64,000 bases of DNA, taken from the NCBI RefSeq assembly GCF_003334315.1, contig NZ_QOWR01000013.1. One strand, 5' to 3'. The notes under the pieces were generated by a model. That model saw only the letters and a list, made by a program, of their open reading frames with translations, was not told the DNA's origin and did no database searches. This DNA comes from Escherichia coli. GTDB lineage: Bacteria > Pseudomonadota > Gammaproteobacteria > Enterobacterales > Enterobacteriaceae. The stretch's first letter is position 1. Each line of letters starts with the position of its first letter. Position numbers and translations under genes: made by a program. Below are positions 1 to 30,736 of this stretch, one piece after another.

Positions 1-1370
1 GCTTATTCCAGGCCTTCCGACAGGCTGATGCCAGTATTTCCCGCCGTCATGGTGGCACCGGGCTGGGGCTGGTGATTACACAAAAACTGGTTAATGAAAT
101 GGGCGGCGATATTTCGTTCCATAGCCAGCCGAATCGCGGTTCAACTTTCTGGTTCCACATTAATCTCGATCTGAACCCGAACATTATTATCGAAGGGCCA
201 TCCACCCAGTGCCTCGCAGGTAAGCGCCTGGCCTATGTCGAACCAAACTCCGCAGCAGCGCAATGCACGCTGGATATTTTAAGTGAAACGCCGCTGGAAG
301 TGGTTTATAGCCCAACGTTCTCCGCGCTGCCTCCCGCGCATTACGACATGATGTTGTTAGGCATCGCGGTGACCTTCCGCGAGCCGCTAACAATGCAACA
401 TGAGCGATTAGCGAAAGCGGTATCGATGACCGATTTCCTGATGCTGGCACTTCCTTGCCATGCACAAGTCAATGCTGAAAAACTCAAGCAAGATGGTATC
501 GGCGCGTGTCTGCTGAAACCATTAACACCTACACGCCTGTTGCCTGCCCTGACGGAATTTTGTCATCACAAACAAAACACGCTTTTGCCTGTAACCGATG
601 AAAGTAAGCTGGCAATGACAGTCATGGCGGTTGATGACAACCCCGCTAACCTGAAACTTATCGGCGCATTGCTGGAAGATATGGTGCAACATGTGGAACT
701 TTGCGATAGCGGGCATCAGGCGGTTGAACGGGCGAAACAGATGCCGTTCGATTTGATCTTAATGGATATTCAAATGCCGGACATGGATGGCATTCGGGCC
801 TGCGAACTCATCCACCAACTCCCGCATCAGCAACAAACGCCGGTTATCGCGGTAACGGCGCATGCAATGGCCGGGCAAAAAGAGAAGCTGCTTGGCGCAG
901 GGATGAGCGATTATCTGGCGAAACCGATTGAAGAAGAGCGATTGCATAATTTGTTGTTGCGCTACAAGCCTGGCAGCGGTATTTCCTCTCGCGTCGTGAC
1001 GCCCGAAGTCAACGAAATTGTGGTGAACCCGAATGCGACCCTCGACTGGCAACTGGCACTACGCCAGGCAGCAGGAAAAACCGATTTAGCGCGCGATATG
1101 CTGCAAATGTTACTCGATTTCCTGCCTGAAGTTCGCAACAAAGTTGAGGAACAGCTGGTTGGAGAAAACCCGGAAGGCCTGGTTGATTTGATTCATAAAC
1201 TGCATGGCAGTTGCGGCTATAGCGGTGTGCCACGTATGAAGAATCTCTGCCAACTGATCGAACAACAGCTACGTAGCGGTACTAAAGAAGAAGATTTGGA
1301 ACCGGAGCTGCTGGAACTGTTGGACGAGATGGATAATGTCGCGCGCGAAGCCAGCAAAATTCTCGGGTAA
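1..1370 (+). CDS. barA: Hybrid sensor histidine kinase BarA, 3' portion (end of HATPase, receiver and Hpt domains); 5' end lies upstream of the window
   Basis: Frame open from window edge to stop at 1368-1370; translation contains HATPase G-box ([13 protein letters not shown]), receiver motif ([13 protein letters not shown]) and C-terminal Hpt region ([12 protein letters not shown]); recognised from memory as BarA C-terminus. Confidence 0.93.
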
Positions 1371-1443
1371 TGGATGTCTTGTCGAGTAGCAATCGGCTTT
1401 TTATGACGCTGGTTTCAGATTGGTGACAAAGTGCCTGTGTTTA

Positions 1444-1542
1444 TGCCGGATGCGGCGTTAACGCCTTATCCGGCATACAAAACCAATTAAATTCAATAAA
1501 TTAAAAAGCATGTAGGCCTGATAAGCGTAGCGCATCAGGCAA
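1444..1542. repeat. Two REP-like palindromic units (GCCGGATGCGGCG...CGCCTTATCCGGC and GCCTGATAAGCG...CGCATCAGGC)
   Basis: Imperfect GC-rich palindromes of the REP type read directly in the barA-gudD intergenic region. Confidence 0.7.
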
Positions 1543-1565
1543 TTTTGTGTTTGGCATCAGTCTCA

Positions 1566-1598
1566 AACCGGCTCCTGACAGAGCCGGTTTTGGTTTTC
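1566..1598 (+). terminator. Rho-independent terminator downstream of barA
   Basis: 10-bp stem AAACCGGCTC / GAGCCGGTTT with 6-nt loop followed by TTTTGGTTTTC. Confidence 0.75.
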
Positions 1599-1602
1599 TG
1601 TC

Positions 1603-2943
1603 TTAACGCACCATGCACGGGCGCTTGTTATCGAACGTCCAGCCAGGAATCAGATACTGCATTCCCATCGCATCGTCACGCGCGCCAAGCCCGTGTTTCT
1701 GATACAGCTCATGGGCTTTCATCACTTGATCCATATCGATTTCTACACCCAGCCCCGGTTTTTCTGGCACCTGTACCAGCCCGCCTTTGATCTCAAACGG
1801 TTCTTTGGTCAGGCGCTGATTACCTTCCTGCCAGATCCAGTGCGTATCAATAGCAGTAATTTTACCCGGTGCAGCGGCGGCAACATGGGTAAACATCGCC
1901 AGGGAAATATCGAAGTGGTTGTTAGAGTGTGAACCCCAGGTCAGGCCAAATTCATGGCACATTTGCGCCACACGTACCGAACCTTGCATTGTCCAGAAAT
2001 GCGGATCCGCCAGCGGGATATCAACGGATTGCAGGGAGAGCGTATGGCCCATTTGCCGCCAGTCGGTGGCGATCATATTGGTTGCAGTCGGTAGACCTGT
2101 CGCGCGACGGAACTCTGCCATCACTTCACGCCCGGAGAAACCTTGCTCCGCACCACACGGATCTTCTGCATAAGCCAGCGAACCTTTCAGGTATTTACCG
2201 ATTTTAATCGCTTCGTTCAGCGACCAGGCACCGTTAGGATCGAGCGTAATACGCGCCTGCGGGAAGCGTTGCGCCAGTGCCACAATAGACTCGGCCTCTT
2301 CTTCCCCGGCCAGTACACCGCCCTTCAGTTTGAAATCGTTGAAGCCATATTTTTCATATGCCGCTTCCGCCAGGCGCACCACCGCATCCGGCGTCATCGC
2401 TTCTTCATGACGCAGGCGATACCAGTCGCATGAGTCATCCGGCTGGCTTTGATACGGCAGCGGCGTGGCTTTGCGATTACCGACGAAGAACAGATAACCG
2501 AGCATTTCGACTTCGCTACGCTGTTGACCATCGCCCAGCAGCGATGCCACGTTTACCCCCAGATGCTGCCCCAGCAGATCCAGCATTGCCGCTTCTATCC
2601 CGGTAACTACATGAATAGTGGTACGTAGGTCAAATGTCTGCAAACCGCGCCCACCAGCATCACGATCGGCAAAAGTATTACGCACCAGCGTCAGAACGTT
2701 TTTGTATTCACCCAGCGTTTTACCTACCACCAGCGGAATCGCATCTTCCAGCGTTTTACGGATTTTCTCGCCGCCGGGAATTTCCCCTACGCCAGTGTGA
2801 CCAGAATTATCTTTGATAATCACAATATTACGCGTAAAGAACGGTGCGTGTGCACCACTCAGATTCATCAGCATACTGTCATGACCCGCCACCGGGATAA
2901 CCTGCATTTCAGTAACAACAGGCGTCGTAAATTGAGAACTCAT
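1603..2943 (-). CDS. gudD: Glucarate dehydratase (enolase superfamily), 446 aa
   Basis: ORF 1603..2967; start moved to [22 protein letters not shown] (ATG 2941-2943, AAGGAC RBS); recognised from memory. Confidence 0.95.
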
Positions 2944-2963
2944 ATTTATGTCCTTTTTCAGAA

Positions 2964-4304
2964 TCAATGACGGCCGAAAACGGGACGTTTACGGTCAAAG
3001 GTCCAGCCGGGGATCAGGTACTGCATCGGACCTGCGTCGTTACGCGCACCGCCAGGCAGACGTTTATAGGCCTCATGTGCCTTTTGTACCTGTTCCCAGT
3101 CCAGTTCCACGCCCAGACCGGGCGCATCAGGAACGGCAATTTTTCCGTTTTTAATCTCCAGCGGATTTTGGGTCAGGCGACAATCGCCCTCCTGCCAAAT
3201 CCAGTGGGTATCGATAGCGGTAGGATTACCCGGTGCCGCCGCGCCCACATGGGTAAACATCGCCAGAGAGATATCGAAATGGTTATTAGAATGGCAGCCC
3301 CAGGTCAGCCCCCAGTCGTCGCAAAGCTGCGCCACACGGACTGCACCGGAAAGCGTCCAGAAGTGCGGATCGGCAAGTGGAATATCTACCGCATTGAGCA
3401 TCACCGCATGACCCATTTCGCGCCAGTTGGTGGCGATCATGTTAGTCGCGACGGGCAAGCCGGTCGCCCGTCGAAATTCCGCCATCACTTCACGTCCGGA
3501 GAAGCCCTGTTCTGCGCCGCATGGATCTTCGGCATAGGTAAGAACATCATTCAGCCCTTTGCATAAAGAAATGGCTTCATCAAGCAGCCATGCACCGTTG
3601 GGATCAACGGTAATCCGCGCATCCGGGAAGCGTTTCTTCAATGCACGAACAGTGTCGATTTCTTGCTCGCCAGGTAACACGCCGCCCTTAAGTTTGAAAT
3701 CTTTAAAGCCGTAGCGATCCTGTGAGGCTTCCGCCAGACGCACAACGGCTTCGCTGTTCATTGCTTTCTGATGCCGCAACTGATACCACTCATGGTTGCC
3801 CGGCGTATTTTCCACATAAGGAAGATCGGTTTTGGTCCGATCACCGATATAAAACAGATAACCGAGGACGGTAATAGCCTCGCGTTGCTTGCCTGGCCCT
3901 AACAGTTCGCAGACCGGAACATTCAGCGCCTTACCTAGCAGGTCAAGCAAAGCGGCTTCCAGCGCCGCCACGGCGTTAACGCGTAATTCAAAGGTCCAGG
4001 CACCTTTACCGAAGGTATCAAAATCGGCGGCCTGATTACCTTTATGCACCTGCTGGACCACTTTATTCAGTCGCGCAACTTCCTGGCCCAGAACCATCGG
4101 AATAGCATCGACAAGCGTCTGATAAATCACATCTCCGCCCGGCGCTTCACCAATGCCGGTATGCCCGGCGTTATCGGTGAGTACCACAATATTGCGGGTG
4201 AAATATGCGTTATGTGCCCCACCAATATTAAGCAACATGCTGTCATGCCCGGCCACCGGAATGACTTTCATATCAGTAATAACAGGACTGGATTGTGTCG
4301 CCAT
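2964..4304 (-). CDS. gudX: Glucarate dehydratase-related protein, paralog of GudD, 446 aa
   Basis: ORF 2964..4319; start at [21 protein letters not shown]; high similarity to the adjacent gudD product along the whole length. Confidence 0.93.
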
Positions 4305-28100: not shown

Positions 28101-28543
28101 TGACAAACCCGCAATTCGCCGGACATCCGTTCGGCACAACCGTAACCGCAGAAACGTTACGCAATACCTTCGCACCGTTGACGCAATGGGAAGATAAATA
28201 TCGCCAGTTGATCATGCTGGGGAAACAGCTTCCGGCATTGCCAGACGAGTTAAAAGCGCAGGCTAAAGAGATTGCCGGATGCGAAAACCGCGTCTGGCTG
28301 GGATATACAGTGGCTGAAAACGGCAAAATGCATTTCTTTGGCGACAGCGAAGGGCGCATTGTGCGCGGCCTGCTGGCGGTGTTGTTGACTGCCGTTGAGG
28401 GGAAAACCGCCGCCGAGTTGCAGGCACAGTCACCACTGGCATTGTTTGATGAGCTGGGATTACGTGCGCAGCTTAGCGCCTCACGCAGCCAGGGGTTAAA
28501 TGCGTTAAGCGAGGCGATTATCGCTGCGACGAAGCAGGTTTAA
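28100..28543 (+). CDS. csdE: Sulfur acceptor protein CsdE (SufE-like), 147 aa
   Basis: 147-aa ORF overlapping the csdA stop (ATGA). Confidence 0.92.
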
Positions 28544-28593
28544 GCACAGAACCGGGTCGGATAAGACGTTCGCGTCTCATCCGACCTGATTGT

Positions 28594-29400
28594 TTAACCC
28601 TGACGCGCCGCTTTCGCCATCATCTTCTTCAGCGCATGAGAAACCGCAACAAACCCAAAGGTGGCGGTCACCATCGTTGCCGCGCCAAATCCAGATGCAC
28701 AATCCATCCGCTTCGGCCCTTCTGCCGTGGCTTTCATCGCACACACCGTACCGTCTGACTGCGGGTACACCAGCGCTTCAGTAGAAAACACGCAATCCAC
28801 GCCGAGCTTACCTTTACTGTTTTTCACTACGCCAAAATCGCTTTTCAGGCGCTCGCGCAACTTCGCCGCCAGCGGGTCCTGAATCGTTTTCGCCAGATCG
28901 GTAACCTGAATCTGCGTCGGTTCAATCTGCCCACCCGCGCCACCGGTTGTGACCAGTGGGATTTTATTGCGCCGACAATAAGCAATCAGCGCCGCTTTGG
29001 GCCGTACACTATCAATGGCATCAATCACGTACGAATAACCCACGCTCATATACTGCGCTACGTTATCCGGCGTCACGAAATCATCCACCACCGTTACACG
29101 GCACTCCGGGTTAATCTGGCGAATACGCTCCGCCATAACTTCCGCTTTTGCCAGCCCAACGTTATCGCGCAGGGCATGAATTTGCCGATTGGTATTGGTG
29201 ACGCACACATCATCCATATCGATAAGCGTGATTGCGCCAATCCCCGTGCGCGCCAGCGCTTCCGCCGCCCAGGAACCGACACCACCGATACCAACCACAC
29301 AAATATGCGCGTCAGCAAACAGTTGCAACGCTTTTTCACCATACAGACGCGCTGTGCCACCAAAACGCTGACGCCATGCATCACTAATTACCACAGACAT
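28594..29400 (-). CDS. tcdA: tRNA threonylcarbamoyladenosine dehydratase TcdA (CsdL), E1-like ThiF/MoeB fold, 268 aa
   Basis: 268-aa ORF with Rossmann motif VVGIGGVGSWAAEALAR. Confidence 0.92.
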   Translation of the reverse strand: MSVVISDAWRQRFGGTARLYGEKALQLFADAHICVVGIGGVGSWAAEALARTGIGAITLIDMDDVCVTNTNRQIHALRDNVGLAKAEVMAERIRQINPECRVTVVDDFVTPDNVAQYMSVGYSYVIDAIDSVRPKAALIAYCRRNKIPLVTTGGAGGQIEPTQIQVTDLAKTIQDPLAAKLRERLKSDFGVVKNSKGKLGVDCVFSTEALVYPQSDGTVCAMKATAEGPKRMDCASGFGAATMVTATFGFVAVSHALKKMMAKAARQG

Positions 29401-29420
29401 AGCACCTCAGAATTAAAAAG

Positions 29421-29608
29421 GGCGAGGTTATCCCTCACCCTAAACGCATAAATGCCTGATGCGCTACGCTTATCAGGCCTACATAACTCCTGCAATATTT
29501 TGGATTTGCATGATTTGTAGGCCGGATAAGGCGTTCACGCCGCATCCGGCATGAACAACGCGCACTTAGTCAATAATCAGGATGTGAGGTTACCCCTCAC
29601 CCTGTCAT
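29421..29608. repeat. REP/BIME-type palindromic units flanked by an 18-bp direct repeat
   Basis: REP units at about 29453-29481 and 29518-29551; GAGGTTATCCCTCACCCT (29424-29441) and GAGGTTACCCCTCACCCT (29586-29603) flank them, 17/18 identical. Confidence 0.7.
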
Positions 29609-29638
29609 ATCCGTAAAAACGGCATACAGAATATCACA

Positions 29639-30736
29639 TCAGCCGCTAAAGACGTTACCTGCGCCCGGGGCGGTTTTCAGCACCCAGACACGTCCATAGT
29701 GGTTGTACCAACCTGCGCGGTGTCCGGCTTCCGGCCCGATCCCTTGATAGATATCGAAGTGTTGGCCTTTGATTGCACCACCGACATCCAGCGCCACCAT
29801 CAGACGCAGTTCGTACTGACCATTAAATTTGCCGTTATTATCCAGCAACGGCACTTCTGCCAGCAAGGTAGTACCTGGCGGAATAATGGAACGATCAGAG
29901 GCAACTGACGCGCGACCAACCAGCGGCACCGCACTTGCCCCTTTCACCGGTGCAAAAGATTGCGGTTTAAAGAAAACGAAAGACGGGTTCTGTTCCAGCA
30001 GCTCGCGAACCTCCGCTTCACTGTGTGTTTCGCCCCAGTGACGAATCGCCTGCATCGACATATCTTCTTTTTTCACTTCGCCACGGTCGATCAACACCTT
30101 ACCGATGCTGCGATAGGCATGACCGTTTTTCCCTGCATAGCTGAAAAAGTTAAGCGGACTGCCATCACCAAAGTCGATATACCCACTACCCTGCACATCC
30201 ATAATGAAGTTATCCATCAGGGAGTTACTGTAAGCGAGAATATATTTATCACTCAATGCCCCCGCGTAGATCTCCGCACGAGACGGCAGACGACCACGTT
30301 TTGGCGGCATACGGTAAATAGGATACTGGAACTCGCCCTGGCGGGTATGGCGCGCCTGAATTACCGGCGTGTAATAGCCTGTAAACTGCACGTTACCATA
30401 GTTGTCGGCACCTTCCATCTGCCAGGCATCAATGCCGAACTGGCGCATATTGCGGGTATCACCGCCTGCGCGCAGCCACTCTTGCACCGCGTTATAAACA
30501 TTACTCTGGTTGCCATACAGACGCGGTGACGAATTACGGATATGGTTAATTTGCTCGGCAAAATCACCGGCGTTAATCGGCGCGCCAACGGCATCTGGCT
30601 GGTTCACCAGAGAGAAAGGCTGGGTAAATTTCCCGTCTTTATATTGCTGTCCGCGATCGGTTGGTTTGGAAGAGCAGGCGGCAAGCATTGCCACAACCGT
30701 GCCCATAAGAAGGTACTTTACCCAACGTCCTTTCAT
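29639..30736 (-). CDS. mltA: Membrane-bound lytic murein transglycosylase A (lipoprotein), 365 aa
   Basis: ORF 29639..31165 is an over-extension; true start at MKGRWVKYLLMGTVVAMLAACSS (lipoprotein signal, ATG 30734-30736). Confidence 0.93.
   Translation of the reverse strand: MKGRWVKYLLMGTVVAMLAACSSKPTDRGQQYKDGKFTQPFSLVNQPDAVGAPINAGDFAEQINHIRNSSPRLYGNQSNVYNAVQEWLRAGGDTRNMRQFGIDAWQMEGADNYGNVQFTGYYTPVIQARHTRQGEFQYPIYRMPPKRGRLPSRAEIYAGALSDKYILAYSNSLMDNFIMDVQGSGYIDFGDGSPLNFFSYAGKNGHAYRSIGKVLIDRGEVKKEDMSMQAIRHWGETHSEAEVRELLEQNPSFVFFKPQSFAPVKGASAVPLVGRASVASDRSIIPPGTTLLAEVPLLDNNGKFNGQYELRLMVALDVGGAIKGQHFDIYQGIGPEAGHRAGWYNHYGRVWVLKTAPGAGNVFSG

Follow-up and report, generated by a model that had tools for sequence, protein, structure and literature searches.

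A copy-number-variable BIME-1 between two copies of a terminator-like hairpin in the mltA-tcdA spacer of Escherichia

The mltA-tcdA spacer and its features

Analysis of a 64,000-nt stretch of Escherichia coli DNA (hereafter the window) located a repeat-bearing spacer between two genes of the minus strand. Open reading frames and the RefSeq annotation of matching records place tcdA from 29400 down to 28594, with its start codon at 29398-29400, and the stop codon of mltA at 29639-29641. Since both genes lie on the minus strand they are arranged in tandem (mltA, then tcdA) rather than convergently, and the spacer at 29401-29638 is at once the 3′ region of mltA and the 5′ region of tcdA. It measures 238 bp in the filled allele, which carries a repeat cassette, and 75-76 bp in empty alleles. 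The features of the spacer are as follows.

29401-29638, no strand: mltA-tcdA intergenic spacer (open reading frames and RefSeq annotation of identical or near-identical records)
29410-29418, minus strand: T-rich tail after hairpin copy 1 (TTTTAATTC on the minus strand), a putative terminator-type U-tract (sequence, terminator scan)
29419-29441, minus strand: hairpin copy 1, tcdA-proximal, AGGGCGAGG-TTATC-CCTCACCCT (sequence, RNA fold, terminator scan)
29424-29585, no strand: copy-number-variable unit of 162 bp, consisting of the hairpin 18-mer, BIME-1 and filler (comparison of alleles)
29442-29581, no strand: BIME-1 without the first 12 nt of the family consensus (alignment to BIME-1 paralogues)
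29442-29451, no strand: BIME-1 left flank motif (alignment to BIME-1 paralogues)
~29452-29483, no strand: Z1 REP (inverted REP arms, alignment to BIME-1 copies)
29484-29515, no strand: L linker (homology to other L linkers)
29493-29505, minus strand: IHF-like site in the L linker (ATCCAAAATATTG; 11 of 13 positions of WATCAANNNNTTR)
~29516-29552, no strand: Y REP (inverted REP arms, alignment to BIME-1 copies)
29553-29581, no strand: BIME-1 right flank motif (alignment to BIME-1 paralogues)
29582-29585, no strand: 4-nt filler ATGT from the BIME-1 right end to direct-repeat copy 2 (sequence)
29579-29603, minus strand: hairpin copy 2, mltA-proximal, AGGATGTGAGG-TTACC-CCTCACCCT (sequence, inverted-repeat search, fold)

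A preliminary description of this DNA had reported an 18-bp direct repeat around two REP palindromes, and the arrangement is present as described. Copy 1 (GAGGTTATCCCTCACCCT, 29424-29441) and copy 2 (GAGGTTACCCCTCACCCT, 29586-29603) are identical at 17 of 18 positions, start 162 nt apart and enclose the two palindromes in inverted orientation (~29452-29483 and ~29516-29552). They are the only matches to the 18-mer with up to three mismatches in the 64-kb window, against a chance expectation of 0.03, and none of 100 shuffles contained two or more matches; the direct repeat is real and non-random. A promoter scan found no sigma-70-like site in the spacer, so a tcdA promoter within the BIME is unsupported, and an Rfam scan of the spacer returned REP-derived families only (ES036 over threshold and naRNA4 under it), with no independent RNA gene.

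Two observations concern the surroundings. A single REP-like palindrome lies at 28555-28589, in the 50-bp gap between csdE (ending at 28543) and tcdA (ending at 28594); these two genes are convergent, and their gap is a sensible place for a bidirectional terminator. Around the spacer (29250-29800) the window is 100% identical to K-12 derivatives, while around barA-gudD (1230-1750) its identity to MG1655 is 96.9%, and therefore the source strain is not K-12 or the region is mosaic.

A conserved, terminator-like hairpin carries the direct repeat

Each 18-mer forms the last 18 nt of a hairpin. Hairpin copy 1, 23 nt in all, folds on minus-strand RNA into a GC-rich 9-bp stem with a 5-nt loop (predicted at -17.2 kcal/mol, z = -2.5), and is followed directly on the transcribed strand by TTTTAATT, a combination of hairpin and T-run that a terminator scan flagged as terminator-like. 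Hairpin copy 2 has an interrupted left arm and no T-run on the minus strand, and the GC-rich stem-loop plus U-run of an intrinsic terminator was found on the transcribed strand at copy 1 only. Judged by its sequence, copy 1 looks like an intrinsic terminator or attenuator of mltA. Its stem, loop and subsequent T-run are those of rho-independent terminators; unlike these, it ends just 10 nt ahead of the ribosome-binding site of the next gene (the tcdA Shine-Dalgarno sequence GAGGTG, 29403-29408), and so it may be an intra-operon attenuator. Just before the 18-mer, a C/T polymorphism gives either U·G (as in copy 1) or U-A on minus-strand RNA and a C·A mismatch on the plus strand; a variant that pairs on minus-strand RNA only points to a function on the transcribed strand.

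These observations leave the idea of a bidirectional terminator between convergent genes, put forward in the preliminary description, hardly credible: the REP palindromes and hairpins are symmetric enough to fold on either strand, but tcdA and mltA are co-directional on the minus strand, the sole terminator-like site is the tcdA-proximal hairpin copy, whose T-run serves that strand only, and the C/T variant mismatches on plus-strand RNA.

An exact scan for the 18-mer in one genome per species (100,044 species genomes) found it in only 20 stretches, and every enterobacterial match was the tcdA-mltA spacer. Enterobacter asburiae, Enterobacter soli and Citrobacter sedlakii each carry one hairpin and no REP in a spacer of 76-77 nt; the hairpin stands there without a BIME, and is therefore old host sequence and not a BIME motif. 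The 18-mer core is identical across three genera, and the 23 nt of the hairpin vary at one stem position (C/T, pairing either way in RNA), a conservation that is, as far as these genomes indicate, unusually strong for a terminator. The same scan leaves next to no credence for the 18-mer as an integral flanking motif of a composite BIME cassette, also proposed earlier: the 18-mers do bracket the element symmetrically, but exact enterobacterial copies are confined to this locus rather than recurring with the BIME type elsewhere, they occur here without a BIME in three other species, and paralogous BIME-1 copies differ in their flanks and share a common left consensus end, GAGACTGATGMC, that is absent at mltA-tcdA.

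Because only the tcdA-proximal copy keeps the T-run in the filled allele, mltA transcripts would bear the BIME in their 3′ region, ahead of the terminator. REP structures in 3′ regions affect mRNA stability and termination (PMC3333891). The cassette changes how far mltA lies from the tRNA-modification gene tcdA and how the RNA between them is structured, and could conceivably affect tcdA expression and shift the relative expression of the two genes. In 21 filled genomes (for example O157:H7 TR01, 88-3493 and XJ34), hairpin copy 1 carries the loop C of copy 2 and the two 18-mers are identical, apparently the result of gene conversion from one copy to the other or of a base change in parallel.

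The element between the repeats

The sequence at 29442-29578 aligns at ~80-89%, non-REP flanks included, with elements at entD-fepA, at an accessory locus and at barA-gudD; the last lies in the same window (aligned part 1418-1552, minus strand), and the best paralogue is only ~89% identical. The element is extragenic, about 140 bp long and single in the window, has conserved non-REP flanks, and contains two palindromic units in inverted orientation, which we take to be one Z1 and one Y from their consensus sequences as well as from the published layout. These are properties of BIME-1 (also RIP or RIB), a class with Y and Z1 units and a long L linker containing an IHF site. BIME-1 elements have been described as a Z1 REP, an L linker and a Y REP occurring in single copies (PMC3333891) and as roughly 140 bp in size (PMC1187871), and their presence or absence among isolates is noted in passages of PMC3333891 and of PMC1187871, the latter citing Bachellier 1997. 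On alignment evidence, the Z1-L-Y doublet at mltA-tcdA is a BIME-1, equivalent to a REPIN: the REP doublet and the hairpin structure are present, and RAYT mobilisation is a candidate only.

The mltA-tcdA copy shares with BIME-1 the inverted Z1-L-Y layout, the conserved flanks, the size of ~140 bp, the extragenic position and the variable presence among isolates. It differs in lacking the first 12 nt of the consensus, in being flanked by a duplicated host hairpin, in its weakened IHF core and in the two to at least five tandem units held by some genomes. Its right end is complete, and consensus position 13-14 is where every Escherichia copy at this locus starts. Between the right end and repeat copy 2, the filler of 4-5 variable bases differs among Escherichia lineages (GAGGT, GAGAT, GATAT). 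The 32-nt L linker is homologous to other L linkers and of the K-12 type, with changes that weaken the core of the predicted IHF site. On the minus strand at 29475-29517 it matches the Rfam family ES036/CssrF with 46.5 bits (gathering score 37.6), so what this sRNA family models appears to be the linker of a repeat element. As the non-REP ends of BIME-1 are inverted repeats of each other (about AGAYTGWTGACAAAG; window 1418-1564, and 1489-1640 in the record of another copy), the element as a whole forms a long imperfect palindrome of some 150 bp.

Copy number across genomes

The comparison of strains for presence or absence of the cassette, suggested in the preliminary description, was run on 5426 complete E. 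coli genomes, and the full cassette region was found in 2752. In 19 sampled genomes without the cassette the match is 388-389 bp instead of 551, that is, 162-163 bp shorter. Nine of them were read in detail, and eight of these are clean empties with a single 18-mer and a spacer of 75-76 nt, in which the one hairpin has on its left the sequence that adjoins copy 1 and on its right the sequence that adjoins copy 2. SCU-171, the remaining genome, carries a complex rearrangement. In this genome (record 430-988) and in JNE120442 (480-1043), hairpin 1 is followed by a second, 225-bp copy of the 3′ end of mltA, then by the right half of the BIME, hairpin 2 and mltA; this allele looks like a two-step template switch using the hairpin repeats. 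The 225-bp duplicate is annotated as a partial '3D domain' pseudogene, and the downstream mltA is intact.

The window itself has one unit plus the extra 18-mer. Two units, in a spacer of 400 bp, were found in three E. coli genomes, O157:H7 OK1, N921 and 2021CK-01361; the alleles of OK1 and N921 were read, and that of 2021CK-01361 was assigned from the same single-piece junction match. Only single-piece rows were used for this array junction query, the coverage summary being confounded by joined separate pieces. In Escherichia sp. MOD1-EC7003, a member of a cryptic species of the genus, units of 162 bp are repeated in tandem at two contig ends (4.8 and 2.3 units); there are at least five of them, differing from one another by 5-8 bases. 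The copy-number series is therefore 0, 1 or 2 in E. coli and at least 5 in MOD1-EC7003; MOD1-EC7003, OK1 and N921 have the head-to-tail arrangement with a 162-bp period of tandem REPIN-plus-flank clusters, and the single copy per locus that is typical of BIME-1 is exceeded in the three E. coli genomes and in MOD1-EC7003. All five non-coli Escherichia lineages sampled are filled.

Some of these alleles have peculiarities of their own. In MOD1-EC7003 (record 364-622) the array ends in a truncated hairpin (GAGGTTATCCCTCACC), which some 240 bp of AT-rich DNA, absent from E. coli, separate from the mltA stop. The E. albertii cassette (record 3285-3482) is without 13 nt (TCAATAATCAGGA) at the right end of the BIME, and five positions distinguish its hairpin copy 2 from copy 1 with all nine pairs kept, two compensatory G-C to A-U double changes giving a full 9-bp stem.

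Direction of change

E. coli, E. albertii, E69, E1V33, SCPM-O-B-8794 and MOD1-EC7003 all share the same hairpin|AAACGC junction and the same 12-nt truncation. Such agreement indicates a single old insertion, and the empty state of the other genera is, from this comparison, ancestral. A single ancestral hairpin, the arrival of a BIME-1 and the duplication of the hairpin can thus be read from the alignments.

Losses and gains of the unit are more recent. Z1323PEC0010 (no unit) and the window (one unit) do not differ at any of 463 left-flank or 475 right-flank positions; other haplotypes differ from Z1323PEC0010 at 18-34 of the 938 flank positions, and N921 (two units) at 4. In Z1323PEC0010 the hairpin has the sequence of copy 1 and adjoins the GTCA flank known from filled alleles, the exact product predicted for deletion between the repeats. 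This junction and the single-hairpin empties, shorter by 162 bp, bear out the earlier suspicion that the repeat is a duplication footprint. The flanks of O157:H7 OK1 (two units) are identical to those of an O157:H7 strain with one unit, apparently a gain of exactly one unit within this clone. Empties of the AZ162 type carry the copy-2 hairpin and the GTCA flank of filled alleles, and so look derived from a filled allele. A query for the deletion product 'C..C..GTCA' retrieved one genome, a derivative of EcN; a single base change from the AZ162 type explains it, and it is not counted as evidence.

Most empty alleles have GTCG adjoining the hairpin, as in outgroup-like sequences, and an outgroup-like loop T, so some of them could be retained ancestral alleles rather than deletions. 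The flank haplotypes are otherwise mosaic between filled and empty alleles, and therefore whole-allele homologous recombination also spreads both states. That all E. coli empties are retained ancestral alleles, with the filled allele spread by recombination or introgression and the direct repeats irrelevant to loss, would account for this loop and flank and for the allele exchange, but we consider it very unlikely given the identity of Z1323PEC0010 to a filled haplotype over 938 bp on both sides of a deletion-type chimeric hairpin, the derived copy-2 hairpin and filled-type flank of AZ162-type empties, the one-unit gains inside the O157:H7 clone and the filled state of all five sampled non-coli lineages.

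A putative mechanism and its parallels

The probable explanation, and the best one for the data as a whole, is that an old terminator-like hairpin was duplicated around a BIME-1 in the Escherichia ancestor and that the resulting repeats drive loss and multiplication of the unit. The starting point was a spacer with one conserved 23-nt hairpin followed by a T-run. A BIME-1 without its first 12 nt then landed on the mltA side of this hairpin, in an event that duplicated, as it appears, the whole hairpin and gave the order hairpin-BIME-hairpin. The two copies, as direct repeats of 18-20 bp around a long inverted repeat, could misalign by replication slippage or unequal exchange, and misalignment would remove the 162-bp unit precisely (1 to 0) or multiply it (1 to 2, and up to at least 5). 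Loss and multiplication are observed as outcomes; the slippage step is suggested by the known behaviour of inverted repeats flanked by direct repeats.

In E. coli, a long inverted repeat with short flanking direct repeats undergoes precise deletion at high frequency and leaves one repeat behind (PMC5576700), and in Pseudomonas fluorescens tandem repeats of a REP doublet plus flanking sequence have been described (PMC3116915). The copy-number series observed here is what these two facts predict. As in the precise excision of Tn5/Tn10 or in the DIRex and MIRAGE engineering methods (PMC5576700), short direct repeats bracket an inverted repeat and one copy is left, and the mltA-tcdA empties have exactly this one-repeat structure; the difference is that the element at mltA-tcdA is a natural one and its repeats comprise 18-20 bp of a host hairpin, whereas those of the other systems are a 9-bp duplication made by a transposase or designed arms of 25 bp. 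As in the REPIN clusters of Pseudomonas fluorescens SBW25 (Bertels and Rainey 2011, PMC3116915), doublet and host flank are repeated head to tail, here in the two-unit E. coli alleles and the MOD1-EC7003 array. Unlike those clusters, the locus belongs to another genus and REP family, its repeated flank is a defined, conserved, terminator-like hairpin, and a series of 0, 1, 2 and many units segregates within a species.

Origin of the hairpin duplication

The duplicated segment appears to be the whole hairpin: copy 2 still has nine pairs in E. albertii, and AGGTGAGG pairs with CCTCACCCT in E1V33. Among explanations for this duplication we prefer, weakly, copy-choice (template switching) during replication or break repair, which is possible though somewhat short of an even chance. 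A nascent strand that stalled at the terminator hairpin would have entered a BIME-1 elsewhere, 12 nt into the element, copied it, returned upstream and copied the hairpin again. The truncation at one end and the untemplated-looking filler at the other are consistent with such an event, and a related two-jump product exists today in SCU-171 and JNE120442. Against it, the junctions have no clear microhomology, no donor locus was found (the best paralogue being only about 89% identical), and a single ancient event is beyond reconstruction from sequence. Neither a search for microhomology where the insertion joins its flanks nor a comparison of the hairpin with the end that the BIME lacks gave anything convincing.

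A true target-site duplication is rather unlikely. A hairpin-specific nuclease, such as the REP-associated Y1 transposase RAYT/TnpA-REP, would have cut both strands of the extruded terminator cruciform at corresponding sites, with a stagger as long as the palindrome, and fill-in after insertion of the BIME would have duplicated the whole hairpin. Such a nuclease would explain why the duplicated segment coincides with a complete hairpin (copy 2 has a full 9-bp stem in E. albertii and the AGGTGAGG...CCTCACCCT stem in E1V33) and why the BIME lies directly against it, as the other BIME-1 of the window (barA-gudD) likewise abuts a terminator hairpin. However, Y1 transposases of the IS200/IS605 type, RAYTs included, make no larger target duplications (PMC2817692), the 12-nt truncation at one end and the variable filler of 4-5 nt at the other are atypical of a precise transposase reaction, and flanking repeats are absent from the three other BIME-1 copies inspected. 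The truncated end, the filler and these repeat-free copies, a small sample, do not fit a transposon-type target-site duplication.

In its broader form, the whole-hairpin duplication would be a preserved footprint of BIME-1/REPIN integration, with entry at extruded terminator hairpins and cuts at the hairpin base on both strands, a proposal that we regard as quite doubtful. If true, it would provide a testable model for REP-doublet insertion, in which the duplication makes young insertions reversible and old ones, with decayed repeats, are fixed. To our knowledge, insertion of a REP doublet has never been directly observed in E. coli.

Significance and other BIME-1 copies

We found no literature combining mltA, tcdA or ygdL with REP or BIME. 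Earlier work has described BIME-1 elements that are present or absent, inverted repeats excised between the direct repeats that flank them, and REPIN-plus-flank units in tandem clusters, so the novelty is modest: the feature is a clean, fairly ordinary example of known repeat-driven variation, not a new kind of element, and no new principle is needed. Its interest is that population data for one locus display every stage in the life of a repeat element: other genera have the ancestral empty site, Escherichia shares one old insertion, precise losses and gains have occurred recently on haplotypes that are otherwise identical, and a sister species has a runaway array. The site is also a natural 162-bp length marker between two conserved genes.

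Other BIME-1 copies behave differently. The barA-gudD copy is present in 5206 and the entD-fepA copy in 5346 of the 5426 genomes, both near-fixed, and no flanking direct repeats were found at three other BIME-1 copies inspected, including these two. Near-fixed, repeat-free copies fit an instability of the mltA-tcdA copy that acts through its direct repeats, the comparison covering very few loci, and the contrast suggests that flanking repeats decide whether a BIME-1 stays polymorphic. One additional 50-kb piece of MG1655 contained no BIME-1.

The barA-gudD copy is a full-length BIME-1 (window 1418-1564, minus strand) that is immediately preceded by a terminator hairpin (AAAACCGGCTCTGTCAGGAGCCGGTTT) and not flanked by direct repeats. 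In Z142-2, a BoxC-like, GC-rich element stands in its place beside a leftover BIME-1 terminal motif. This element (record about 210-390) has AAAGGGCGAGG and CCCTCACCC in common with the mltA-tcdA hairpin (window 29415-29441), perhaps because G-rich and C-rich stems resemble each other by chance or because the two are distantly related.
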